Shown: positions 46,169 through 64,000, numbered from the stretch's first letter. The stretch is 64,000 nucleotides of DNA from Bacillota bacterium (GCA_051744805.1 JBNJDK010000001.1:32572-96571); one strand, 5' to 3'. Numbers and translations are program-made. Notes: generated by a model from the letters alone, not told the origin.

Positions 46169-47482
46169 TTAAGTTACTTTAACTAACTTGTCATTATCAC
46201 AGGACTTTCTTCCAACTTTACTCATATCTATCCACTTACCATCTTTTTTCACTCTAACTACATCAGCAGTAAAATCTGTATTAGTTCCTTCCTCTGAACT
46301 ATTAGACAATAACCAGCTTCCTATACCATATATATCTACAGGAACTTGAGACTTTTCAAATTTTTTTATTTTTTCTGGATTAAAACCACCAGTCGCAATA
46401 ATTTTGACATCTTCACAATAATTTTTAGCTCTTTTCCTTATTTCTCCTCTCAAATTCCACTCCTTATAAGCATTATCAATAGCTTTACGTAATTTGAAAA
46501 TCAATCGAGCATTTACTCCATTATCCAATGACTTATCACCTAATGGTTCTACACTAACATCTCTTAAACTGGAAGAAGTATCTGGTCTAACCCCAAAAAG
46601 TTTATATTTTTTTGCCTTATCTTTATTTCCTTTTTCAAGATAATTATTATATTTTTCAAACATTAATTTCAATACTTTTTTACTTGTTCCAATACAGTCA
46701 TTATCAAAATCTACTAAAGCAATTCTATTAACATCAAGAGGCATTAATCTTGAAAACTGTAACATTCCTTCTGCAGTATCTCCATGAAAGGTAGCTATAT
46801 AAGAATGGCTAATAGTTCCCCCACCTTTACCACCCCACCAGGCACCCTGTCCATCAGTTGAAACAAGTCTAAGACTATTTTTACCATAATCTTTATTATA
46901 TGCCTTTACCCCAAGAGAATAAGCATATCCATGAAGAGCCTGAAGTTTATAGTGAGCAAATCTTGCAGGAAAAAACAAAATATCCTTTCCCCGAGCAGCT
47001 TCCAAAACTTTATAAACATTAGTAGCTATTCTTGAAGCTTCAGTCAGGGATCCAACCATAGGCGTTTCTAAAATTGAAAAATCTCTATATCTTCCTCTGA
47101 TTTTAATTATAGGATCCACATTTTTAGGATTGCCATTATAATAACCTTTTACTCCATCATGACAAGCCTCAACCTCAAGATCAGAAAAAGTATTTATAAA
47201 TTTTCCCTCTTCATTCCAATACCCAGTAGCAGTTTTTAATAAAGCCAGAGATTCATCTATTCCCCCCACTATAGAAAAAGGGGTACGCCGTGGAAAAATT
47301 TGCATCTCAACTTCTATATTTCCAATATCCTCATCATTATAAGTATAACCTTCATTAGATAATTGATTTAAAATTTTACTTATGTTTCTGAAATATACAT
47401 CTGAATACCAACCATTTACCATTCTTTCTTTATCTATCTGGAAGGTATCTATTGATAATCTTTCTTTATTGAATACTGACAT
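46169..47482 (-). CDS. Nicotinate phosphoribosyltransferase-family protein
   Basis: 437 aa with the general type II PRTase/NAPRT family pattern (YSDVYF..., SHSYIA, GVRPDTSS). The subfamily is not resolved. Confidence 0.65.
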   Translation of the reverse strand: MSVFNKERLSIDTFQIDKERMVNGWYSDVYFRNISKILNQLSNEGYTYNDEDIGNIEVEMQIFPRRTPFSIVGGIDESLALLKTATGYWNEEGKFINTFSDLEVEACHDGVKGYYNGNPKNVDPIIKIRGRYRDFSILETPMVGSLTEASRIATNVYKVLEAARGKDILFFPARFAHYKLQALHGYAYSLGVKAYNKDYGKNSLRLVSTDGQGAWWGGKGGGTISHSYIATFHGDTAEGMLQFSRLMPLDVNRIALVDFDNDCIGTSKKVLKLMFEKYNNYLEKGNKDKAKKYKLFGVRPDTSSSLRDVSVEPLGDKSLDNGVNARLIFKLRKAIDNAYKEWNLRGEIRKRAKNYCEDVKIIATGGFNPEKIKKFEKSQVPVDIYGIGSWLLSNSSEEGTNTDFTADVVRVKKDGKWIDMSKVGRKSCDNDKLVKVT

Positions 47483-53268: not shown

Positions 53269-54456
53269 CTATCCAGAAATTTTACCATAATTCCCTCCAC
53301 CACCAGATTGAATAGATAAATTTCCTTTTCTAGATTTAATAATAAGATTTGCCAGTTTTTTACCAATGACCGATTTTATATCCTCATATTTACTATTATG
53401 AATAATTTCCATTTCCGTACCAAACTCTTCAAGTAATTTTTCTAAGCTTTTATTTCCTATTCCAGGTAAATTTAATAATGGAACCTGATATTTATATTTT
53501 CCTCTAAAAGAAGGGGACTTAGACCTATTTCGAGGACTAATACTTAAAACTCTATCTTTAACTCCTCTAATTAATTTTTCACTTTTACAAATCGGACACT
53601 TAGCAATGGTTTTTTCTTCAGAAAATATTGTATCACAATCTGGGCAGTATGAACGATGATATTTTCCCAGCCGAGGATCCATCCCAAAATTTTTAATTAT
53701 ATTTCTACCTTTGTTTCTATTTAAAGCAAGTTTAAATTCATAAAAATTCAGGTCATTTATTTTGAAAATATTATATTCTCTTGCTATTTTAGGAACTGAG
53801 TGGGCATCAGAATTACTTAAAAAACTTTTATTTCTTAATTCTGGTAAATAATCTGCTAATTTTGTATCAGCACTTAAACCTAATTCAATTGCAGGAATTT
53901 CATCCCACTGTTTTTCACTAAAAACTTCTTTATAAGATGAAAAAGAATTCCCATAAAAACTTTTATGAGGTGTAAATGCATGAGCAGGTATTAAAATACC
54001 TGAACATAGTTTTACAATTTTAAATATCTCAGCTCCTGTTAAACCAGTTGATTGAGAACTCAAATTAATATTGCTAATATATTGACTCATTATTTCACTA
54101 AATTCTTTTAAATTTTGCAAATAAGGAAAATAAGCAAGATAATGAGCCTGCCCCCCATTTTTTTCTCTACTTTCAACTTCAGCACCAGGTATAATTAATA
54201 ATTCATCCTTATATAATAAACCACCAGAAGACAACTCTTTCATTACTTTACTATCCAGTAATGATTCAATGTCTTTAATTACATCAGGAGATGCAGAATC
54301 AATAACTCCAACTATATCTAAACCTTTTCGTTCTAAAGATTCTTTAGCTATATTAGAAAAGTTAAGTTTATCAGAAGCTGTTATCTTTACAGCCTGACCA
54401 GAACTTGCCCGACCAATATGAATATGCAAATCAGCAAAATAATTATTCAATTTCAT
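53269..54456 (-). CDS. Endonuclease Q-like PHP-domain protein (TIGR00375 family)
   Basis: N-terminal YFADLHIHIG (PHP), a CPDC...CPICK zinc finger and a C-terminal helix-hairpin-helix (LPGIGNKSLEKLLEEFG). The start is probably M19 (54456) or M16 (54465). Confidence 0.7.
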   Translation of the reverse strand: MKLNNYFADLHIHIGRASSGQAVKITASDKLNFSNIAKESLERKGLDIVGVIDSASPDVIKDIESLLDSKVMKELSSGGLLYKDELLIIPGAEVESREKNGGQAHYLAYFPYLQNLKEFSEIMSQYISNINLSSQSTGLTGAEIFKIVKLCSGILIPAHAFTPHKSFYGNSFSSYKEVFSEKQWDEIPAIELGLSADTKLADYLPELRNKSFLSNSDAHSVPKIAREYNIFKINDLNFYEFKLALNRNKGRNIIKNFGMDPRLGKYHRSYCPDCDTIFSEEKTIAKCPICKSEKLIRGVKDRVLSISPRNRSKSPSFRGKYKYQVPLLNLPGIGNKSLEKLLEEFGTEMEIIHNSKYEDIKSVIGKKLANLIIKSRKGNLSIQSGGGGNYGKISG

Positions 54457-55000
54457 TAAAATCATCCTGATTTTGTAGATAATATAGTAAGCCAACAATA
54501 GTTTTACCATCTACTATTTTTTCATTTTTTATTTTTTCCATTATTTCAGCTGGGTCTAAAAGTGCATGTTTGATAAACTCTCCAGGATCAAGCCCATCTC
54601 CAGGTTCAAATTGCAAGTCTTTGGCTAAATATAAATGCAATTTTTCATTTGAATAACCTGGACTGGTATAAAAGGAAAATAATTTTTTAACTTCTTTAGG
54701 TCTATATCCTGTTTCTTCCCATAACTCACGAGCAGCACATTCAGCAGGCATTTCACCATCATCAAGTTTACCAGCTGGTAGTTCTAACAACATTTTTTCT
54801 ACTGCTTTTCTATATTGCTTAACCATTAAAATTTTATTATCTTCATTTTGAGCAATAATTGTTACCCCTCCACTATGTTCTATTACTTCTCTGTAAGACT
54901 CATTTTCATCCGGTAAAAGAACTCTATCTTTCCTTAATTTCAAAACAGATCCATCATAAATATCTTTGCTTTTGATGGTTTTTTCTTCATAATCTGACAT
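54443..55000 (-). CDS. nudF: NUDIX hydrolase, ADP-ribose pyrophosphatase type
   Basis: 185 aa with the Nudix box GKLDDGEMPAECAARELWEETG. Confidence 0.85.
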   Translation of the reverse strand: MSDYEEKTIKSKDIYDGSVLKLRKDRVLLPDENESYREVIEHSGGVTIIAQNEDNKILMVKQYRKAVEKMLLELPAGKLDDGEMPAECAARELWEETGYRPKEVKKLFSFYTSPGYSNEKLHLYLAKDLQFEPGDGLDPGEFIKHALLDPAEIMEKIKNEKIVDGKTIVGLLYYLQNQDDFNEIE

Positions 55001-55017
55001 GCTATCACTCCTCTATT

Positions 55018-56136
55018 CTAAAATGATCTAATTATATTTATTAAATACTCAATTAATTTTAAGAGATTAGAAATTTTCACTCTTTCTTCAGTAGAATGTA
55101 CATTTTCCATGGCTGAACCTAAATTTACAGTGGAAAGACCTTTAATATTAAAAATATTAGCATCACTACCCCCACCACTACTTGTAAGTTCAAAAGGAAT
55201 ATTTGTTTTTTTAGCAGCTTTTTTCATTATTTTAATGATTTTTTCATTTTCATTAATTTCAAAACTCTTATATAATTGCTCAATATCAAATTCAATATTT
55301 CCATTTAATTTATCAGTATAATTACTAAGTATTTTTTTCATTTTTTTAGTTTGATCTAATAATTTTTTTTCATTATGACTTCTTACTTCACCTTCAAGTT
55401 CAACTAAATCAGGAACAATATTACTTGCTGATCCACCTTTAATTACTCCTATATTAGCAGTAGTTTCTTTATCAATTCTTCCTACTGGCATTTCTGAAAT
55501 AGCATGACTGACTATTTTAATAGCATTAACACCCTTTTCCGGCTCCATTCCAGCATGAGCTGCTTTGCCATTTATAACAGCATTGAATTTTTTTTGGCCT
55601 GGAGCTTTATTTATCACATTTCCTATACTACCATCTGCATCAACTACTATACCATAATCAGCTTTTTTAATATATGAAGAATCAAGATTTTTAGTGCCAA
55701 GTAAACCTATTTCCTCTGCAACAGAAAAAACTACAATTATATTGGGATATGTATATTTTTCCTTCTGTAATTTTTTTACTGCTTCAATTATACTGAGGAC
55801 TCCTATCATATCATCTCCACCTAAAACAGTTTCACCTTTACTATATATATATCCATCTTTTATTGTTGTTTCAACTCCTTTACCGGGAGTTACTCGATCC
55901 ATATGAGCAGATAATAAAATAGTTGGTAAAGAGTTATCTCCTTCTAATTCAGCAATAATATTACCCGAATTACCTTCAATCTTTTCTCCAGCACTATCTT
56001 CTTTCACTTGAAATCCAAGCTCATTGAGTTCCATTTTCAATTTATCAGCCATTTTTCTCTCACTTTTTGATATACTATCAACTTCAACTAATTCTATAAA
56101 TTTTTCAACAATTTTTTCTTTTTCTAAATTATACAT
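55018..56136 (-). CDS. M20-family metallopeptidase (peptidase T/tripeptidase-like)
   Basis: 372 aa with LSAHMDRV, GGDDMIG and AEEIGLLG motifs. Confidence 0.8.
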   Translation of the reverse strand: MYNLEKEKIVEKFIELVEVDSISKSERKMADKLKMELNELGFQVKEDSAGEKIEGNSGNIIAELEGDNSLPTILLSAHMDRVTPGKGVETTIKDGYIYSKGETVLGGDDMIGVLSIIEAVKKLQKEKYTYPNIIVVFSVAEEIGLLGTKNLDSSYIKKADYGIVVDADGSIGNVINKAPGQKKFNAVINGKAAHAGMEPEKGVNAIKIVSHAISEMPVGRIDKETTANIGVIKGGSASNIVPDLVELEGEVRSHNEKKLLDQTKKMKKILSNYTDKLNGNIEFDIEQLYKSFEINENEKIIKIMKKAAKKTNIPFELTSSGGGSDANIFNIKGLSTVNLGSAMENVHSTEERVKISNLLKLIEYLINIIRSF

Positions 56137-56187: not shown

Positions 56188-56221
56188 AAAATCCTTCCCT
56201 GAAAAATTCAGAGAAGGATTT
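56188..56221 (-). terminator. Rho-independent terminator after the oxidoreductase gamma gene
   Basis: AAATCCTTC..CTGAA-aaa-TTCAG..GAAGGATTT, followed on the minus strand by TTTTGTGTT. Confidence 0.7.
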
Positions 56222-56257
56222 ATTTAAATTAATTAATCTAATGTTAAATATAATAAT

Positions 56258-56794
56258 TTATTTAACAAGCTCATTCCCTTTTTCTAATGCTTTTTCATTA
56301 ATAGGGATCAAGCCATGTCTTCGCTCTGGTAAAACATTTTTAAGAGATTCTTTAACAATATCAAGGTCAAGAATTCCAGTTTGTCCAATATAAGCACCAA
56401 GCATAGCCATATTAGCAGCTTTACTATTTCCCAAATCATTAGCAATCTCATTAGCTGGGACTTTTATAACTTCCACATCATCTCTTTCAACTTCTTTTTC
56501 AATAAGAGATGAATTAACAAAAATAGTTCCTCCAGATCTTACTTTTGGAGCAAATTTATCTAAAGAAGGCAAATTCATTACAATTATTGAATTCGGATTA
56601 GAAGAAAGTGGAGATGGAATCTTATCATCAGAAACGATAACTGTACAATTAGCTGTTCCACCTCTCATTTCTGGTCCATAAGAAGGCATCCATGAAACTT
56701 CTTTCCCTCTCTTCATACCAGCATATGAAAGCAATTTACCTATTGACATTACTCCCTGACCACCAAATCCGGCCATAATTATTTCTTCTTTCAT
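56258..56794 (-). CDS. 2-oxoacid:ferredoxin oxidoreductase, gamma subunit
   Basis: MKEEIIMAGFGGQGV... Start at ATG 56794 after GGAGGG. Confidence 0.9.
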   Translation of the reverse strand: MKEEIIMAGFGGQGVMSIGKLLSYAGMKRGKEVSWMPSYGPEMRGGTANCTVIVSDDKIPSPLSSNPNSIIVMNLPSLDKFAPKVRSGGTIFVNSSLIEKEVERDDVEVIKVPANEIANDLGNSKAANMAMLGAYIGQTGILDLDIVKESLKNVLPERRHGLIPINEKALEKGNELVK

Positions 56795-56795
56795 A

Positions 56796-57542
56796 TTATT
56801 CACCCTCCTCTGGAGACTTAATTTCACCTAGAGGATAAACAGGGATCATATTTTCATCAAGCCATTCTGTAGCATCTATAGGACTCATTCCCCAATTTGT
56901 TGGACAGGTAGAAAGAACTTCAACTAATGAATAACCCTTACCCTCTAATTGAGTTTCAAAAGCTTTTTTAATTGCCTTTTTAGCTTCTCTAATATATTTG
57001 GGTTTATGAACAGATACTCTAGAAACATAAGCAGCTCCATCAGCAACGCTTAGCATTTCAGTAATTTTAATTGGCCCTCCTGCTTCTTTAACATCTCTAC
57101 CATAAGGAGAAGTAGTTGTTTTTTGACCTTCTAAAGATGTTGGAGCCATCTGTCCACCAGTCATACCATAAATGGCATTATTAACAAATATTGTAGTAAT
57201 ATTTTCTCCACGGTTTGCTGCATGTACACTTTCAGCAGTACCTATAGATGCAAAATCACCATCACCTTGATAGGTAAATACTACTTTATCAGGATGAACT
57301 CTTTTTATACCTGTTGCAACTGCAGGAGCTCTACCGTGAGATGCTTCATGCATATCACAATCAAAATACTCATAAGCCAGTACTGAACAACCTACTGGTG
57401 CAACTCCAATTGTTTCATCTTTTATATCTAATTCATCCATAACTTCAGCTATCAAACGGTGGATAATGCCATGAGTACAACCAGGACAGTAGTGAAATTC
57501 TTTATCAGTGAGTGAATCTGGATATCCGGCTACTTCTTTCAT
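56796..57542 (-). CDS. 2-oxoacid:ferredoxin oxidoreductase, beta (TPP-binding) subunit
   Basis: 248 aa with CPGCTHG and GDGD..SIG..E..HAANRGENIT..VNNAIYGMTGGQ. Confidence 0.92.
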   Translation of the reverse strand: MKEVAGYPDSLTDKEFHYCPGCTHGIIHRLIAEVMDELDIKDETIGVAPVGCSVLAYEYFDCDMHEASHGRAPAVATGIKRVHPDKVVFTYQGDGDFASIGTAESVHAANRGENITTIFVNNAIYGMTGGQMAPTSLEGQKTTTSPYGRDVKEAGGPIKITEMLSVADGAAYVSRVSVHKPKYIREAKKAIKKAFETQLEGKGYSLVEVLSTCPTNWGMSPIDATEWLDENMIPVYPLGEIKSPEEGE

Positions 57543-58606
57543 TATCTGTCACCTCCCATATGTTCTTTAACTTTATCATATATTTCTTCAGGTGAAGGTA
57601 TCATACCACCAGGTCTACCATGGAAATAAACCGGTTTTTTACCTTCAACAGCAAGTCTTACATCTTCTATCATTTGTCCAGTACTCATTTCAACTGCTAA
57701 GAAAGAGTCAACATTTTCAGCAGCATCACGAATTACTTCAGTTGGAAATGGGAAAAGAGTAATCGGTCTAATAAGGCCAACTTTTATTCCTTCTTCTCTG
57801 GCCATTTCCATCGCATTAATTGCAATTCTAGCAGTTGTACCATAAGCAACTATAGCCAAATCTGCATCTTCCATATTATAAGTTTCATATCTAACTTCAT
57901 TTTCTTTCATCTTGTCATATTTTTCTTTTAACTTCCAGTTATGATCTTCAAGATCCTGAGGATCTAAAGCTAAAGAGTTTATGACATTTTTTTCTCTTCC
58001 TTTAGCTCCATCAGTTGCCCATTCTTTTTTTGGTAATTCATCTGGATCAACTTCATTCTTGAATTCAACAGGCTCCATCATTTGGCCAATCATTCCATCT
58101 CCCACAATCATAACAGGATTACGATACCTATCAGCTATTTCAAAAGCTTCCATAGTTAGATCTACTAACTCTTGCACGGATGATGGAGCTAAAACACACA
58201 ATCTAAAATCTCCATGAGCCATTCCTTTTGTGGCCTGGAAATAATCTGATTGAGAAGGTTGAATACCACCCAATCCTGGTCCACCTCTCATCATATTAAC
58301 AATAACTGCAGGTAATTCTGCTCCTGCTATATATGAAATACCCTCTGCTTTAAGACTAATTCCTGGACTGGATGAAGAAGTCATTACTCTTGCACCAGAA
58401 CCAGCTGCACCATAAACCATATTACTTGCCGCAACTTCACTTTCAGCCTGAAGAAATGTACCTCCTACTTCCGGTAATCTTCGAGCCATATAAGCTGGAA
58501 CATCATTTTGAGGTGTTATTGGATAACCGAAAAAATAACGACAACCTGCTTTAATAGCTGCTTCAGCTACAGCTTCATTTCCTTTCATCAAAGTTTTTTC
58601 TCCCAT
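57542..58606 (-). CDS. vorB: 2-oxoacid:ferredoxin oxidoreductase, alpha subunit (VorB-like)
   Basis: 354 aa with LMKGNEAVAEAAIKAGCRYFFGYPITPQ. Confidence 0.9.
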   Translation of the reverse strand: MGEKTLMKGNEAVAEAAIKAGCRYFFGYPITPQNDVPAYMARRLPEVGGTFLQAESEVAASNMVYGAAGSGARVMTSSSSPGISLKAEGISYIAGAELPAVIVNMMRGGPGLGGIQPSQSDYFQATKGMAHGDFRLCVLAPSSVQELVDLTMEAFEIADRYRNPVMIVGDGMIGQMMEPVEFKNEVDPDELPKKEWATDGAKGREKNVINSLALDPQDLEDHNWKLKEKYDKMKENEVRYETYNMEDADLAIVAYGTTARIAINAMEMAREEGIKVGLIRPITLFPFPTEVIRDAAENVDSFLAVEMSTGQMIEDVRLAVEGKKPVYFHGRPGGMIPSPEEIYDKVKEHMGGDR

Positions 58607-58634
58607 CTTAAAACCTCCCTTTTATTGGTATAAT

Positions 58635-58853
58635 CTATTCTTCTTTATATACAGTAATTACTACATCTGGACACATTTGAGCACACAATCCACAGCTTAT
58701 ACATTCATCCTGGTCTGTAACTTCAGCAGGGTGATAACCATGGCTATTTATTCTATCTGCCATTTTTATAATATCTTTAGGGCAGACAGTTGTACAAAGT
58801 TCACAGCCTTTACATCTTTCTTCATTAAATACTACTTTTTTTACTTTTTCCAT
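58635..58853 (-). CDS. 4Fe-4S ferredoxin-type delta subunit
   Basis: 72 aa with two CxxCxxCxxxCP motifs (CKGCELCTTVCP, CISCGLCAQMCP). Confidence 0.9.
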   Translation of the reverse strand: MEKVKKVVFNEERCKGCELCTTVCPKDIIKMADRINSHGYHPAEVTDQDECISCGLCAQMCPDVVITVYKEE

Positions 58854-58947
58854 CTAATTAACCCCCTTTATCTTTCTTGAAGTTTCTACCAACAGTAATT
58901 GTATCATATTCTTTAGACCAAAACCAGTTTTTAAAAAATCACAGGAA

Positions 58948-58974
58948 CATACCCGGGTTTAGGACCCGGGTATG
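58948..58974 (-). terminator. GC-rich hairpin between buk and the oxidoreductase genes (possible partial terminator or processing site)
   Basis: CATACCCGGGT-ttagg-ACCCGGGTATG is a perfect 11-bp stem. The U-run (GATTTTTT) begins about 9 nt after the stem on the minus strand. Confidence 0.45.
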
Positions 58975-58979
58975 TAAAT

Positions 58980-60050
58980 TTAATTATATACTTTGGCCTC
59001 TTCTTCACCATTTAATACTCGTTTTGCTCCTGCAGCAAGTGCTTTTAATTCTTCTTCTCCAGGATAAATAACTAAAGGAGCAATAAACTCAACAGAACTT
59101 TTTATTTCTTTTACAAAATAATCTGAGTAAGCAATTCCTCCTGTCAAAATAATAGCATCTATTTCTCCATTAGTCACTGGAGCTAGAGAGGCTATTTCTT
59201 TTGAAGTTTGATAGGCCATTGCTTTGAAAACTAATTCAGCCTTTTTATCTCCATTATCAATCTTATTTTCAACTTCTATCATATCATTTGTTCCAAGATA
59301 TGCTACTACTCCACCTTTTCCTACTAATTTCTTTTTAATTTCTTCATAGGAATATTTTTCATCATAACACATCTCAAAAAGGTCAAAACTTGGAAGTCCT
59401 CCACTTCTATTTGGAGAAAATGGACCTTCCCCACTTAAAGCATCATTAACATCAATAACTTTCCCTTTTTTATGAATTCCTACAGAAATTCCTCCACCTA
59501 AGTGGGCAACAATTAAATTTAAATTTTCGTATTCTTTGTTATTATTTTTGGCATATTTTCTTGCTACTGCTTTTTGGTTAAGAGCATGAAATATGCTGAC
59601 TCTTTCAATTTCAGGTAATCCTGATAAACGAGCTACATCCTGCAACTCATCAACAACAACTGGATCTACTATATAGGATGGAATATCAACTTTATCAGCA
59701 ATTGATTTTGCTAATATACCACCTAAATTACTGGCATGTTCACCCTGTACACCTTTATTTAAGTCTTCAATCATTTTCTCATTTACTTTATAAGTGCCAC
59801 CTGGTATAGGTTTTAATAATCCACCTCTACCTACCACAGCTGAAAGATGATCCAGTTCAACTTCCTTTTTATCTAAAAAATCTAAAATATATGAAAGTCT
59901 AAGGTCCTGTTGATCTGTTATATTTTTAAAGTCTTTTAATTCATCTGCATTGTGAGAAATATTTTCTACAAAAACTTCTTCTAACCCTTTATATAAACCA
60001 AGTTTAGTAGAAGTTGAACCTGGGTTGAGCACTAAAATCATCTTTTCCAT
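58980..60050 (-). CDS. buk: Butyrate (branched-chain acyl) kinase
   Basis: 356 aa with ILVLNPGSTSTKL and the ASKHA fold pattern. Confidence 0.93.
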   Translation of the reverse strand: MEKMILVLNPGSTSTKLGLYKGLEEVFVENISHNADELKDFKNITDQQDLRLSYILDFLDKKEVELDHLSAVVGRGGLLKPIPGGTYKVNEKMIEDLNKGVQGEHASNLGGILAKSIADKVDIPSYIVDPVVVDELQDVARLSGLPEIERVSIFHALNQKAVARKYAKNNNKEYENLNLIVAHLGGGISVGIHKKGKVIDVNDALSGEGPFSPNRSGGLPSFDLFEMCYDEKYSYEEIKKKLVGKGGVVAYLGTNDMIEVENKIDNGDKKAELVFKAMAYQTSKEIASLAPVTNGEIDAIILTGGIAYSDYFVKEIKSSVEFIAPLVIYPGEEELKALAAGAKRVLNGEEEAKVYN

Positions 60051-60064
60051 AAAATAAGATCCTC

Positions 60065-61132
60065 CTATCTAGGTATATAGTTTCTTCGTACTTTAGTAAC
60101 TTTTTCAATTCTTTCTTCAGCCATAATATCTGCAGCTTTATAAGTAGGAATATTGTCTCTTTTACTAATTTCTATTACCTTTTTCATATTATCATAAATT
60201 TTACTGGCTCTACTAATAGCTCTATCACGATTATATCCCTGAAGTTCATCATAGACATTGATCAATCCACCAGCATTAGCTACATAATCAGGGCCATATA
60301 AAATATCCATTTCATCTAATTTATTACCATGTTTTTCTTCATCTTCAAGAACATTATTAGCAGCACCACAAATAATATCACATTTCAATTGAGGTATAGT
60401 ATCATCATTTATTACTGCACCTAAAGCACTTGGAGCAAAAATATCACAGTCAACACCAAAAATTTCATCAGGTTCAACAACTTCTGCACCAAAATCTTCT
60501 ACAACTTTATCAATGTTTTCCTGCTTAATATCTGTAATGATTAAATTTCCACCTTCTTCATTAATATGTTTTGCTAAATGATAACCAACATGTCCTACAC
60601 CCTGAATTGCAACAGTTTTACCTTCAAGATCCGGGCTTCCATATACTTCATCTGCTGTTGCCTTCATAGCTTTCCAGACACCAAAAGCGGTCACAGGTGA
60701 AGGATCTCCACTAGTTCCAGGAAGACCTGTTACATAATCAGTTTCTTCAGCAACATAAGCCATATCTTCAACTGTTGTATTAACATCTTCTGCAGTTATA
60801 TAGCGACCATTTAAACTTTGAACAAAACGTCCAAAAGCTCTCCATAATTCTTCACTTTTGATATTATCAGCATCTCCAATAATTACTGCTTTTCCACCAC
60901 CTAAGTTCAATCCAGCAGCCGCAGCTTTATAAGTCATTCCTCTAGATAATCTCATAACATCAATTAATGCTTCTTCTTCATTATCATAATTCCAGAGTCT
61001 TGTTCCTCCAAGTGCTGGTCCAAGACTGGTATCATGAATAGCAATTATAGCCTTTAATCCTGTTTCTTCATCATAATTTACAACTATTTGTTCATGATCA
61101 AATTCTTCCATTTTCTCAAATACCTTTTTCAT
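60065..61132 (-). CDS. ldh: Leucine dehydrogenase-type amino-acid dehydrogenase (Glu/Leu/Phe/Val DH family), copy 2
   Basis: 355 aa with [22 protein letters not shown] and GVGHVG (Rossmann). Confidence 0.88.
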
Positions 61133-61158
61133 TATTAAATCCCCCTTGAATTTTATAA

Positions 61159-62079
61159 TTAATTATTTTTATAACCCATAGTAACTAATTTACCAAGAGC
61201 AATAGAATTAAACTTAGTTGTCGCACTATCAGCTCTTGAAGTTAAAACCATTGGAACTTTAGCTCCTAAAACAAGACTAGCAGAAGGTAAACCTGCATAA
61301 AAGACTAAAGCTTTATATAATATATTCCCAGCTTCAATATCTGGTACTAATAAAATATCTGCCTGACCTGCCACAGGACTCTCAATTCCTTTATGTTCTG
61401 CAGCTTCTAAACTTACAGCATTATCAAAAGCAAGCGGACCATCGATCTCTACATTTCCAATTTGACCTCTATCGCCCATTTTTGATAAAGTAGCTGCGTC
61501 TAATGTACAGGGCATAGCTGAATTGACTTTTTCAACAGCAGCTAATGGAGCGACTTTTGGCTTTTTAACTCCAACTGCCTGAGCCATTTCTGCTGCATTT
61601 GTAATAATTTCTTTTTTATCATTAAGGTCAGGAGCAATATTCATCCCACCATCAGTCATAAATACAATTTTATCTTCATTTTCAAGATACATCATTGTTA
61701 CCAAACTCAAAAGTCTATCCTGTCTTAAATCATATTTTTTATCAAGTAAAGCCTGTAAAATAACTTTTGTACTCAAAAGTCCTTTCATCGGAAAATCTGC
61801 TTTTCCTTCAGCTATTAACTCTATAGACTTATTTGCTGCTTCTTTATCATTATCAGCATGTACTATTTCACCATTAAAATCATAATCTAACTTTTGTAAA
61901 TTATTTTTTATTTTTTTCTGATCCCCAACTAAAACAGCATCAATTATTCCTGCTTCATCAGCTTTTTTAACACTTTCTAAAACAACTTTATCTCCAGCAG
62001 CAGCAACTGCCAGTTTTAAAGAAGGTTTACTCTTTGCCGCTTCAATCAATTCATCAATATTTTCAAACAAATATATCAC
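61159..62079 (-). CDS. ptb: Phosphate butyryltransferase (phosphotransacylase)
   Basis: About 303 aa with the Ptb/Pta pattern ([31 protein letters not shown]). The listed start is GTG 62079; TTG 62070 after AAGAGGTGA is equally plausible. Confidence 0.9.
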
Positions 62080-62092
62080 CTCTTTTTATCAG

Positions 62093-63160
62093 TTATGAAC
62101 GTATAGATTTTAAATGAGATATTGTTTCCAGTCTTTCTTCAACCATATGATTAGCAGCTTCAAAAGTTGGTATATCTTTTTCGCGAGAAATTTTAAATAC
62201 TTTTAAAAGTGTGTCATAAATTTTTTCGCATTTAGACATCACTCTATCCTCATTATAACCACTAGGATCCATTTCATCAGTTACCTGGATTAATCCTCCT
62301 GCATTTACAACATAATCAGGAGCATATAATATTCCCTTTTCATAAAGCATTTTTCCATGACGAGGTTCTGCTAATACATTATTTGCTGCTCCACAAATTA
62401 TGTCACAGTTCAAACGGTCAATAGTATCATCATTAATGACTGCTCCTAATGCATTTGGAGAGAAAATATCACAGTCGACATCAAAAATTTCTTCCGGCTC
62501 TACAATATTAACACCCAGTTCACGTGCAGCTTCAATAGATTCTTCATCAACATCAGTTGCATAAACTTCTGCTCCTTCATCTACAAGATGTTTAACAAGC
62601 TTTCCACCTACTTTACCTAAACCTTGAACTGCAACTGTTTTTCCTTCAAGTGAATCTGTGCCATACTTTTCTTTGCAGGAAGCTTTAAGGCCCATATAAG
62701 TACCATAAGCTGTTGGAATTGAAGAATCTCCCCCACCACCATATTCTTTAGGAAGAGCACCAACATAAGGAGTCTCTTTTCTCATAGTTACAAAATCATA
62801 ATAAGTTGTTCCTACATCAGTACCGGTGTAATAACGACCATTAAACCCATCAATAAATTTACCTAAAGCTCTAAATAATCCTTCAGATTTATCCTTGTCT
62901 GGATCTCCCCAGATTACAGTTTTACCTCCACCATAATCATCACCAGCAGCAGCAGATTTATAAGTCATACCTCTAGATAATCTAAGAACATCAGTTAACA
63001 TTTCTTCTTCATTATCATAAGGATACATTCTGCATCCTCCAACTGCCGGTCCAAGTTTAGTACTATGAATAGCAATAGCAGATTTCAATTTTGTTTTTTG
63101 ATCTTGCATAAAAATTACCTGTTCATGCCCCATTTCGGCCATTTTTTCAAACAGTTTCAT
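62093..63160 (-). CDS. Leu/Phe/Val dehydrogenase-family amino-acid dehydrogenase, copy 1 (divergent paralog)
   Basis: 355 aa with LGPAVGGCRMY, GDDYGGGKTVI and GLGKVG. It is collinear with copy 2 but clearly diverged. Confidence 0.85.
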   Translation of the reverse strand: MKLFEKMAEMGHEQVIFMQDQKTKLKSAIAIHSTKLGPAVGGCRMYPYDNEEEMLTDVLRLSRGMTYKSAAAGDDYGGGKTVIWGDPDKDKSEGLFRALGKFIDGFNGRYYTGTDVGTTYYDFVTMRKETPYVGALPKEYGGGGDSSIPTAYGTYMGLKASCKEKYGTDSLEGKTVAVQGLGKVGGKLVKHLVDEGAEVYATDVDEESIEAARELGVNIVEPEEIFDVDCDIFSPNALGAVINDDTIDRLNCDIICGAANNVLAEPRHGKMLYEKGILYAPDYVVNAGGLIQVTDEMDPSGYNEDRVMSKCEKIYDTLLKVFKISREKDIPTFEAANHMVEERLETISHLKSIRS

Positions 63161-63219
63161 ATAATATATACCCCCTATGTTTTTAAAAAATTATTAATTT
63201 TTACCTGTTTTATATAACT

Positions 63220-63235
63220 TGCAATTACTATACCA
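63220..63235 (-). promoter_or_regulatory. Sigma-54 (-24/-12) promoter
   Basis: The minus strand reads TGGTAT-AGTAA-TTGCA, against the consensus TGGCAC-N5-TTGCW. GG/GC spacing is correct. It lies about 60 nt upstream of the first ldh ATG. Confidence 0.7.
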
Positions 63236-63311
63236 ATATTTGCATTTTCATTAAAAAAAATATGTTCTTTTTTTAACAATTGTTTATAACCCTATCAAAT
63301 CAATATTTTAT

Positions 63312-63334
63312 CATTCTATATAAATTATAGAATG
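63312..63334. promoter_or_regulatory. Inverted repeat CATTCTATA-N5-TATAGAATG, candidate enhancer (UAS) for the sigma-54 activator
   Basis: A perfect 9-5-9 palindrome about 80-100 bp upstream of the -24 element. Confidence 0.4.
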
Positions 63335-63367
63335 TTTTAATACTTAAAATATAAATTTAAACCCATT

Positions 63368-63394
63368 AAAAAAAGCCTGCAAACTAATGCAGGC
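63368..63394 (-). terminator. Rho-independent terminator after the sigma-54 activator gene
   Basis: GCCTGCA-6 nt-TGCAGGC, followed on the minus strand by T7. Confidence 0.8.
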
Positions 63395-63420
63395 CTGAAT
63401 GTTTTTGCAGGAAATTTATT

Positions 63421-64000
63421 TCAATTAATATTATATTTTTTTATCTTATAATAGAGACTCCTTACGGCAATGTTAAGCATCTCTGCAGCCTCTTTGCGAT
63501 TTCCATTTGTTTTATTCAGAGTTTTAATAATAATCTTTTTTTCAGTTTCACTCATTATTTCTTTAAGTGTATTGTTCTCTATGGATTTTTCAGCAGAAGA
63601 TAAATTATCATTGTTTTTTGTTTCCTTATTATCTTTACCTAAAGGAGGTAAATGTTTCTCTTTTATTATCTCTTCATCTAAATTCATATGAATCATCGCT
63701 CGACCTATAATATTTTCTAATTCTCTCACATTACCAGGCCATCTATAATTAGCCAATTTATTATAAGCTTCTTCAGTTATATCTTTTACTGACCTACCAT
63801 ATTCCTGGTTAAACTTTCTAATTATATGATGAATAAGAGGTTCTAAGTCTCCCTTTCTTTCTCTGAGTGGGGGAATAAAAAGAGGAAAGACATTAAATCT
63901 ATAATAAAGATCTTCTCGAAATTCTCCATTTTCTATAGCAGTTTCTAAATTTGTATTTGTGGCTACTATTACTCTCACATCTATTTCTATTGGTTGGGTA
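63421..64000 (-). CDS. Sigma-54-dependent transcriptional activator (enhancer-binding protein), C-terminal part; the 5' end is outside the window
   Basis: The frame is open to the window edge (..TQPIEIDVRVIVATN..). It shows the AAA+ sigma-54 interaction domain end (FREDLYYRFNVFPLFIPPLRERKGDL, WPGNVRELEN) and a Fis-type HTH (NRKEAAEMLNIAVRSLYYKIKKY). Confidence 0.9.
   Translation of the reverse strand, partial: TQPIEIDVRVIVATNTNLETAIENGEFREDLYYRFNVFPLFIPPLRERKGDLEPLIHHIIRKFNQEYGRSVKDITEEAYNKLANYRWPGNVRELENIIGRAMIHMNLDEEIIKEKHLPPLGKDNKETKNNDNLSSAEKSIENNTLKEIMSETEKKIIIKTLNKTNGNRKEAAEMLNIAVRSLYYKIKKYNIN

Follow-up and report, generated by a model that had tools for sequence, protein, structure and literature searches.

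Gene content of the cluster

At one end of the window, by which we mean the whole 64,000-nucleotide stretch of DNA that was analysed, the minus strand carries the 3' third of an activator gene, then the eight genes ldh-ptb-ldh-buk-vorDABC and finally a strong terminator (Table 1). Gene calls, domain searches and motif and repeat scans recovered every feature that a preliminary description of this DNA had listed, each in its place. The first four genes comprise the bkd-type set of ptb, LeuDH (bcd) and buk, with the dehydrogenase present twice. The product of ldh2 is a canonical leucine dehydrogenase and is 56% identical to that of ldh1, which has leucine dehydrogenases as its top PDB matches (E 3e-124) and an altered substrate pocket (V40, G113 and T114 in 1LEH numbering). 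Ptb scores 365 and 347 bits against the NCBIfam phosphate butyryltransferase models, slightly under their cut-offs.

The four-subunit composition of the VOR-type oxidoreductase is complete, with delta, alpha, beta and gamma all identified by their domains. VorA, which is 97% identical to a protein from a Halanaerobiales MAG and 82% identical to that of Halothermothrix orenii, passes the curated VorB subfamily model, and the KorA, PorA and IOR models remain far under their cut-offs; no NCBIfam equivalog model was passed by the delta, beta or gamma subunit. For vorC the ATG at 56794, overlapping the vorB stop, probably represents the true start; the NCBIfam alignments of the called protein start at residue 12, and the H. 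orenii orthologue is 177 amino acids long.

Table 1 Features of the activator-ldh-ptb-ldh-buk-vorDABC region, in window coordinates.
Feature	Position	Strand	Basis or remarks
Sigma-54 enhancer-binding protein, C-terminal 192 residues, BkdR-like	63424..64000	-	Pfam Sigma54_activat (domain end), AAA_lid_14, HTH_8
Candidate enhancer (UAS) site 1, TGCAAAAACATTCA	63396..63409	.	One mismatch to TGCA-N6-TGCA; L081 version is TGCAAAAATATTCA
Candidate enhancer (UAS) site 2, TGCATTAGTTTGCA	63378..63391	.	Exact TGCA-N6-TGCA; ~150 bp upstream of the -24 GG
Terminator-like hairpin of activator gene, AGGCCTGCATTAGTTTGCAGGCTT plus T7	63366..63396	-	Terminator scan; fold -16.3 kcal/mol
AT-rich 9-5-9 palindrome, CATTCTATA-N5-TATAGAATG	63312..63334	.	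Perfect repeat; contains TATAAT hexamer; lineage-specific
Sigma-54 type -24/-12 promoter, TGGTATAGTAATTGCA	63220..63235	-	Unique in window; identical in L081
ldh1, LeuDH-family amino-acid dehydrogenase	62093..63160	-	Pfam ELFV_dehydrog_N and ELFV_dehydrog
ptb, phosphate butyryl/branched-acyl transferase	61159..62079	-	PF01515, E 1e-46
ldh2, canonical leucine dehydrogenase	60065..61132	-	L40, A113, E114 (1LEH numbering); domain search
buk, butyrate/branched-chain acyl kinase	58980..60050	-	TIGR02707, 556 bits vs cut-off 289
GC-rich strong hairpin in 126-bp buk-vorD spacer	58947..58975	-	-22.6 kcal/mol, z -5.8; conserved in L081
vorD, delta subunit, 2x[4Fe-4S] ferredoxin-like	58635..58853	-	Fer4 families
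vorA, alpha subunit ('VorB' in NCBI naming)	57542..58606	-	POR_N and PFOR_II; NF005507, 585 bits vs cut-off 399
vorB, beta subunit, TPP and [4Fe-4S] binding	56796..57542	-	TPP_enzyme_C; CxxC, GDG motif and TCP in translation
vorC, gamma subunit	56258..56827	-	PF01558 (POR gamma)
Intrinsic terminator closing the unit	56189..56221	-	15-bp stem and T-run; -19.2 kcal/mol, z -5.3

A BkdR-like activator and a conserved sigma-54 type promoter

The activator gene runs off the window end at 64000, with only about one third of it inside, and we estimate its full length at ~582 amino acids. Compared with residues 391-582 of the full-length protein of a related locus (L081), the fragment shows 82% identity. 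The L081 protein has a PAS-PAS-AAA+-HTH architecture; this architecture and an intact GAFTGA motif are seen in the full-length relatives from both L081 and H. orenii. Related Halanaerobiales activators are 54-57% identical to the activator heading the ldh-lpdV-E1-E2 operon of Brevibacillus (L055), and the C-terminal fragment in the window is itself 50% identical to this BCKDH-operon activator. By comparison with the Brevibacillus protein, the activator is BkdR-like in both architecture and sequence. BkdR of B. thuringiensis likewise has two PAS/PAC domains (PMC4428206).

The -24/-12 element proposed in the preliminary description is present at 63235..63220, where TGGTAT and TTGCA are separated by AGTAA, with the GC of the -12 part at 63221-63222 and the end of the element 60 nt before the ldh1 ATG. 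It is the single match to TGGYAY-N5-TTGCW on both strands of the window, with 0.16 expected, and of 20 related operons, 19 are preceded by an equivalent element, where ~0.004 would be expected per 350-bp upstream region. Together with the BkdR-like activator, this conservation backs the proposed control by sigma-54 and an enhancer-binding protein. In B. thuringiensis, a -24/-12 promoter in the same orientation before ptb depends on BkdR and sigma-54, as demonstrated by experiment (PMC4428206). Against this control, neither the window nor any of the 84 loci examined contains an rpoN gene; sigma-54 is presumably available to the organism, and an amino acid would presumably serve as inducer.

Transcription units

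It is plausible that a single promoter serves the eight genes, and the terminator earlier placed at the end of the unit is indeed found there. The spacer between buk and vorD complicates this picture, since it contains a strong hairpin that may act as a partial terminator or else in stabilising or processing the mRNA, followed by a T-run 9 nt downstream and then by TGATACAAT, an extended -10-like sequence that is conserved in L081 as well. Because of the hairpin and the -10-like sequence, vorDABC is possibly partly uncoupled from the upstream genes. At the extreme, there could be two units, with sigma-54 and the activator driving only ldh-ptb-ldh-buk, and vorDABC relying chiefly on a separate sigma-70 promoter that lies past a terminator or attenuator. 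We regard two such units as unlikely, given that the T-run is set apart from the stem, which is non-canonical for a terminator, and that no -35 element was found at proper spacing to TGATACAAT. Moreover, the buk-vorD gap of 126 bp shrinks to just 16-40 bp in L001, L002, L049 and L060, which suggests that co-transcription is the ancestral state. We infer that vorDABC is transcribed together with the first four genes.

Relation to the bkd operon and to other gene clusters

The obvious reference for this cluster is the SigL/BkdR-controlled bkd operon of B. subtilis and B. thuringiensis, in which bkdR is followed by ptb-bcd-buk-lpdV-bkdAA-bkdAB-bkdB. Both have an upstream activator in the same orientation with two PAS domains, AAA+ and HTH, a -24/-12 promoter at a distance of 40-90 nt from the first gene, and ptb, LeuDH and buk. 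In contrast to the bkd operon, the cluster has two LeuDH paralogues, an activator that is ~120 residues shorter at the N-terminus (582 vs. 693-709 amino acids) and a strictly anaerobic host, and vorDABC takes the place of the E3, E1-alpha, E1-beta and E2 genes. Gene calls and domain searches show the interval 56188-63160 to be free of BCKDH complex genes, and the L055 BCKDH subunits gave no tblastn match in the Halanaerobiales loci. The cluster would work like a bkd operon, yet it is not a BCKDH operon. The replacement of BCKDH by a ferredoxin-dependent enzyme, as originally suggested, is borne out by the loci of this activator family: Brevibacillus L055 and Alicyclobacillus L032 carry BCKDH, others, among them the window and H. 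orenii, carry VOR, and L014 has the two next to each other.

Parts of this arrangement are known from elsewhere. The ptb-buk-bkdDABC cluster of Enterococcus faecalis also joins ptb and buk to an enzyme oxidising branched-chain 2-oxoacids for ATP gain, but this enzyme is an NAD-linked BCKDH and LeuDH is missing; no dependence of this cluster on sigma-54 is known. The VOR of Clostridium sporogenes (porA locus, CLOSPO_00146-00149) and the VOR-like OFOR loci of gut Firmicutes resemble the present cluster in that a four-subunit ferredoxin enzyme feeds Ptb and Buk, and the published accounts place them in the oxidative branch of amino-acid fermentation with substrate-level phosphorylation (PMC12873857; PMC6384274). 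There, amino acids are described as entering via aminotransferases rather than via NAD-linked LeuDH, and the relevant passages make no mention of control by sigma-54 and an activator. A ZypR/sigma-54 regulon, tyrB-iorAB-butK, has been predicted in Clostridioides, Clostridium and Romboutsia (Nie et al. 2019, PMC6615313). Like the cluster described here, it places butyrate kinase, a ferredoxin-dependent 2-oxoacid oxidoreductase and an enzyme for amino-acid entry under a sigma-54 activator; unlike it, the activator belongs to another family, the oxidoreductase is of the indolepyruvate-type with two subunits, an aminotransferase stands in for the dehydrogenase and ptb is lacking.

Genomic context, direction of flux and substrate range

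The order activator-ldh-ptb-ldh-buk-vorDABC, followed by an M20 peptidase, recurs in the complete genome of H. orenii H168 and in five other Halanaerobiales loci, and variants of the layout occur across anaerobic Bacillota. With a PepT-like peptidase nearby, and the arginine deiminase pathway in relatives, the neighbourhood is one of peptide and amino-acid catabolism. The catabolic direction and the earlier label of a Stickland-type branch are inferred; no electron-accepting branch lies within the window.

All steps of the pathway are reversible, a property of all four enzyme classes that would permit net flux in the anabolic direction. The same genes under the same regulation could then serve salvage, with exogenous isobutyrate, isovalerate and 2-methylbutyrate activated by Buk and Ptb, carboxylated reductively by VOR at the expense of reduced ferredoxin and aminated by LeuDH to valine, leucine and isoleucine; alternatively, the pathway could stop at the acyl-CoAs and prime branched membrane lipids. 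For VOR, reversibility is attributed to Heider et al. 1996 in PMC6384274, and the Bacillus bkd operon also provides lipid primers (PMC6461809). Even so, a predominantly anabolic or lipid-priming role seems improbable: the activator has a relative at the head of a classical BCKDH operon, the bkd operons of Bacillus are presented as serving isoleucine and valine degradation (PMC4428206), and peptidase and arginine-catabolic genes surround the cluster. In addition, the same VOR-ptb-buk module is paired with aminotransferases in Kosmotoga and gut Firmicutes, contexts that are read as oxidative.

Activity of the oxidoreductase on branched-chain 2-oxoacids is predicted from its linkage to LeuDH, ptb and buk, which is kept in more than 15 loci across Bacillota and in Kosmotoga. 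PMC12873857 reports that VOR-like enzymes encoded beside ptb and buk oxidise branched-chain 2-oxoacids, and that some favour aromatic 2-oxoacids despite their sequence class. Several orthologues are labelled by JGI as 2-oxoglutarate ferredoxin oxidoreductase alpha subunit and the nearest solved structures belong to generic 2-oxoacid or 2-oxoglutarate enzymes, but with the KorA and PorA models missed by far and the linkage so widely conserved, an enzyme specific for 2-oxoglutarate or pyruvate in an incidental neighbourhood is very unlikely.

Candidate enhancer sites and an associated NTPase

Upstream of the promoter, the candidate for the enhancer is a conserved pair of TGCA-N6-TGCA motifs, of which site 2 is the sole exact copy within the window. 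In 18 sequences, operon-upstream DNA totalling 6.8 kb contains 19 copies of this motif and the 358 kb elsewhere only 4, a 251-fold enrichment upstream of these operons that includes the classical BCKDH operon of Brevibacillus. The preliminary description had instead pointed to the 9-5-9 palindrome, which is indeed perfect, is well placed in the intergenic region, ~90 bp further upstream than the -24 element, and overlaps a weak sigma-70-like match. It is very unlikely to be the activator's binding site: in L081 (88.7% DNA identity) arm pairing is left at just 5 of 9 positions, it is not a conserved element in L001 or any other locus compared, and the HTH region of the activator is conserved across loci that all share TGCA-N6-TGCA instead. 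Inverted repeats with arms of at least 9 nt number 32 in this 29% GC window, with ~10 per 64 kb arising by chance in Markov simulations.

Site 2 also forms the stem of the terminator-like hairpin at which the activator gene, just upstream of the operon, would end, and the same palindrome-plus-T-run design is present in L002, L019, L049, L060 and L083.

A separate observation concerns a 220-residue SIMIBI-class P-loop NTPase without family assignment that accompanies vorDABC. Its gene immediately precedes vorD in Kosmotoga and many Bacillota, and the activator gene in Halanaerobiales, so that here it is expected just past base 64000. By analogy with CooC, HypB, UreG and Mrp, it could help to assemble the oxidoreductase or to mature its Fe-S clusters; alternatively, it could be a regulatory partner of the activator. 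We tentatively propose, as a possibility well short of even odds, that the NTPase is a dedicated, so far unrecognised VOR accessory protein and that the enhancer has two uses, in RNA as terminator of the activator gene and in DNA as the site to which the activator binds.

Proposed function

We consider it likely that the cluster is a BkdR-type regulon on the chromosome of a Halanaerobiales bacterium, with VOR replacing BCKDH. The activator would bind the tandem TGCA-N6-TGCA sites and, from ~150 bp upstream, would activate sigma-54 RNA polymerase at the -24/-12 promoter. The resulting transcript would encode two NAD-dependent LeuDH-family dehydrogenases, one canonical and one with a widened pocket, Ptb, Buk and the four-subunit VOR-type 2-oxoacid:ferredoxin oxidoreductase. 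Branched-chain and probably some bulkier amino acids would be converted by the dehydrogenases to 2-oxoacids, NADH and NH4+, and the oxidoreductase would yield acyl-CoA, CO2 and reduced ferredoxin. Via Ptb and Buk, acyl-CoA would then give acyl-phosphate and finally a branched short-chain fatty acid and ATP, with the acyl-CoAs possibly also used as primers of iso- and anteiso-lipid synthesis. Where Bacillus has an NAD-linked dehydrogenase complex, the present cluster has an oxygen-sensitive ferredoxin enzyme. It is a sensible and unsurprising variant of the already known bkd system, in a layout typical of the salt-loving anaerobes of the Halanaerobiales, and its predicted role is probably to make short branched fatty acids and ATP from leucine-type amino acids.

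Gene content and conservation of gene order

All features that the preliminary description listed for the minus strand of 56188-64000 are confirmed, including genes, promoter, palindrome and terminator (see the table). Buk passes the butyrate kinase equivalog model (556 bits vs. 289), and the alpha subunit of the 2-oxoacid:ferredoxin oxidoreductase (VOR) encoded by vorDABC scores 585 bits on NCBIfam NF005507 ("VorB"; cut-off 399), with KorA, PorA and IOR scores far under their cut-offs. Solved leucine dehydrogenases are the best matches of both dehydrogenases, with E values of 3e-124 (Ldh1) and 3e-148 (Ldh2). No record of the exact Ldh1 protein was found, and P0001, which is 93% identical, stood in for it. 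The 29% GC content, the relatives of Ldh1 (93% and 86% identity to uncultured Bacillota proteins, 70% to Halothermothrix orenii) and VorA (97% to a Halanaerobiales MAG protein, 86% to Halanaerobium praevalens), and the housekeeping character of ten downstream neighbours in Pfam scans (nucleoside phosphorylases, WhiA, SMC and NUDIX only) identify the window as chromosomal Halanaerobiales DNA. Neither an Rnf complex nor a hydrogenase was found among those ten neighbours. Two long ORFs downstream of the operon have no Pfam match at E ≤1e-6.

Features of the operon and of related loci (L numbers designate loci fetched for comparison; NTPase, P-loop NTPase)
Feature	Position	Strand	Remarks
Activator gene, 3' end		minus	last 192 codons; end of Sigma54_activat, AAA_lid_14, HTH_8; cut by window end
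Activator-ldh1 intergenic region			263 bp
Terminator-like hairpin and TGCA-N6-TGCA sites	63366-63409		hairpin ends activator gene
TGCA-N6-TGCA, one mismatch	63396-63409		candidate enhancer
TGCA-N6-TGCA, exact	63378-63391		candidate enhancer
9-5-9 palindrome	63312-63334		perfect repeat
AT-rich inverted repeat	63251-63276		TTAAAAAAA-N8-TTTTTTTAA
-24/-12 element	63235-63220		TGGTAT-AGTAA-TTGCA
ldh1	62093-63160	minus
ptb		minus
ldh2	60065-61132	minus
buk		minus
buk-vorD spacer	58853-58980		126 bp; L081:14180-14304
Spacer hairpin	58947-58975		GC-rich
vorD, vorA, vorB, vorC		minus	in this order
Terminator	56189-56221	minus	15-bp stem, after vorC
Amino-acid catabolic neighbours	55018-56136		L081:3586-7105; L083:2420-7684
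Downstream ORF	53269-54510		413 aa
Downstream ORF	46169-47482		437 aa
NTPase copies in relatives	L081:7268-7936; L083:10001-10681; L014:12177-12944; L082:7001-7663; L084:7001-7675
Cluster with VOR and BCKDH	L014:6730-20816		Bacillales bacterium UBA6259 (MAG)

The layout was surveyed by a scan of one genome per species, after which the proteins of the window served as tblastn queries. The order activator-ldh-ptb-ldh-buk-vorDABC recurs in five Halanaerobiales loci (L001, L002, L003, L049 and L060), in the 88.7% identical metagenome contig L081, and in H. orenii H168 (complete genome CP001098.1, ~728-738 kb), where an M20 peptidase again comes after it. Variants are widespread in anaerobic Bacillota: activator-ldh-buk-ptb-ldh-buk-x-vorDABC in L004 and L006 (x being a P-loop NTPase gene), activator-buk-ptb-buk-x-vorDABC in Wukongibacter, activator-ldh-vorDABC in L061 and ldh-ptb-x-vorDABC in Desulforamulus. 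In Kosmotoga the arrangement is aminotransferase-buk-ptb-buk-x-vorDABC, without the activator. In many relatives (L004, L006, L011, L082 and L084) two butyrate kinase paralogues flank ptb, whereas the Halanaerobiales duplicate the dehydrogenase instead. Amino-acid catabolic neighbours are also kept between relatives: genes of the arginine deiminase pathway (ADI, OTCase and carbamate kinase) lie upstream of the cluster, and one for a PepT-like M20 peptidase lies downstream.

A putative sigma-54/BkdR-like control system

The -24/-12 element proposed upstream of ldh1 holds up well: it is the sole match to TGGYAY-N5-TTGCW on both strands of the 64 kb (0.16 expected), and 19 of 20 related loci have an equivalent, matching TGG[ACT]A[CT]-N5-[AT]TGC[ATG] in the 350 bp that precede the first gene. 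Elsewhere in the same sequences this pattern occurs 9 times in 787 kb strand-bases, or 0.004 times per 350 bp. A TGGCAT-N4-TTGCT sequence upstream of the Kosmotoga locus was rejected as a sigma-54 promoter on account of its spacing. The full-length activator of L081 has a PAS-PAS-AAA+-HTH architecture with an intact GAFTGA motif, and its residues 391-582 share 82% identity with the fragment in the window. Activators of related loci show 54-57% identity to the activator of the classical ldh-lpdV-E1alpha-E1beta-E2 operon in Brevibacillus laterosporus (L055); for the window's own C-terminal fragment the figure is 50%. BkdR of B. thuringiensis likewise has two PAS/PAC domains, and the ptb promoter of that species (TTGGCACGGTATTTGCT, in the same orientation) is experimentally BkdR- and sigma-54-dependent (PMC4428206). 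Given the conserved promoter, the kinship of the activators and this precedent, we accept control by a putative sigma-54 system with a BkdR-like activator. A search by RpoN-box motif found no rpoN in the window or in the fetched loci.

The preliminary description also proposed the 9-5-9 palindrome as the activator-binding site. This palindrome is not conserved; a TGCA-N6-TGCA motif is conserved instead. The L081 counterpart of the palindrome reads TTTTAAATA-AATTA-TTTTAAATT, in which pairing survives at just 5 of the 9 arm positions, and L001 and the other loci have nothing resembling it. Moreover, perfect repeats with arms of at least 9 are common in this AT-rich DNA (32 in the window vs. ~10 simulated per 64 kb). 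Judged by eye against the consensus sequences, the palindrome does not fit a CodY, cre, Rex or ARG-box site.

TGCA-N6-TGCA is repeated two to four times, in tandem or with overlaps, beginning directly after the activator stop codon; the centres of the copies precede the -24 element by 60-190 bp. Exact copies number 19 in 6.8 kb of upstream DNA (18 sequences) vs. 4 in the remaining 358 kb of the same sequences, a 251-fold enrichment, and the motif is also found in H. orenii, in Wukongibacter and upstream of the Brevibacillus operon encoding the NAD-linked complex (BCKDH). The exact copy in the window is the only one in 64 kb, and both it and the one-mismatch copy are kept in L081. The terminator-like hairpin at the end of the activator gene has the exact copy as its stem, and L002, L019, L049, L060 and H. 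orenii show the same palindrome-plus-T-run design; one sequence therefore appears to double as RNA terminator and candidate DNA enhancer. The most likely activator site thus moves from the palindrome to TGCA-N6-TGCA, which matters for the design of EMSA or reporter experiments. A second AT-rich perfect inverted repeat precedes the -24 element by ~15 bp; it may be due to chance, or may be a stretch of intrinsically bent DNA that separates enhancer and promoter.

Coupling of buk and vor

The spacer between buk and vorD has the same length in the window and in L081. It contains a hairpin (-22.6 kcal/mol, z -5.8); a T-run lies 9 nt downstream of the hairpin, and after it comes an extended -10-like sequence (TGATACAAT). 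In other relatives the gap is only 16-40 bp, making the 126-bp spacer lineage-specific. Co-transcription of buk and vor is likely ancestral, but in the window/L081 lineage vor may have become partly independent of buk.

Predicted pathway and substrate range

In the proposed route, leucine dehydrogenase (LeuDH) would deaminate the amino acid with formation of NADH, VOR would convert the product to acyl-CoA, CO2 and reduced ferredoxin, and Ptb and Buk would release the free acid with a yield of one ATP. All steps are reversible; the relationship to BkdR and the peptidase and arginine deiminase neighbours suggest a catabolic flux. A route of this type is the established oxidative branch of amino-acid fermentation (PMC6384274). 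For VOR-like loci adjoining ptb and buk, oxidation of branched-chain 2-oxoacids has been demonstrated, together with a side activity on those derived from Phe and Met (PMC12873857).

Ldh1 and Ldh2 are 56% identical and differ in the substrate pocket: the canonical residues L40, A113 and E114 (1LEH numbering) are present in Ldh2, while Ldh1 has V40, G113 and T114, the latter two invariant within the Ldh1 clade. These differences suggest different substrate ranges for the paralogues. Gly at position 113 is the state found in phenylalanine dehydrogenases, and the A113G change makes the pocket of LeuDH larger; Ldh1 may therefore take bulkier substrates.

A P-loop NTPase travelling with the VOR module

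The x gene encodes a protein of 220-255 aa with a Walker A motif (GxFGSGKTE), for which no Pfam or NCBIfam model scores above cut-off and whose 914 homologues are all named hypothetical or ATP-binding. The nearest solved folds to its AlphaFold model (mean pLDDT 84) are the NG domains of SRP54/FtsY (TM ~0.55), which on modelling grounds places it in the SIMIBI class. The gene lies directly before vorD in L004, L006, L007, L008, L009, L012, L014, L019, Kosmotoga and Wukongibacter. In the Halanaerobiales (L002, L049, L060, L081 and H. orenii) it immediately precedes the activator gene instead; the window's copy would be expected just past base 64000. A role in VOR assembly or maturation is speculation.

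Proposed exchange of BCKDH and VOR

Loci under this activator family, with promoter and enhancer, come in three arrangements: BCKDH only (Brevibacillus L055 and Alicyclobacillus L032), VOR only (many loci, the window among them) and both. No -24/-12 match was found in Alicyclobacillus L032, and its TGCA-N6-TGCA sites are one-mismatch only. Both enzymes are encoded in the Bacillales MAG locus L014, where activator-ptb-ldh-buk-x-vorDABC is followed on the same strand, after a 375-bp gap, by lpdV-E1alpha-E1beta-E2; these BCKDH genes may be their own transcription unit, and the hybrid cluster may represent an intermediate stage of the exchange. That one activator family heads all three arrangements supports the proposed replacement of BCKDH by VOR as a modular exchange, and the side-by-side occurrence in one MAG suggests addition followed by loss. 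The closest regulatory relative is the bkd operon of Bacillus. The window's operon works like it but lacks the BCKDH genes that define a bkd operon, and hence is not one.

Parts of this picture are already known: the layout is public in the H. orenii genome, and NCBI annotation names the VOR subunits. A specialist would find nothing surprising in the biology: it is established both that VOR feeds Ptb and Buk and that operons for amino-acid fermentation can be under sigma-54 control. A sigma-54/ZypR regulon (tyrB-iorAB-butK) has been predicted in Clostridia by Nie et al. 2019, whose regulon list differs in lacking any ldh-ptb-buk-vor unit (PMC6615313). Our literature search found no paper tying BkdR to a ferredoxin oxidoreductase, and nothing relevant on sigma-54 with ketoisovalerate and butyrate kinase or on Halanaerobium branched fatty acids.

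The putative BkdR-like/sigma-54 regulatory cassette thus appears to be retained while the oxidising enzyme changes with lifestyle, BCKDH in aerobes and VOR in strict anaerobes. For the Halanaerobiales, abundant inhabitants of brines and fractured shale, this provides a candidate operator sequence and a concrete, testable locus for the predicted formation of branched fatty acids and ammonia from peptides.
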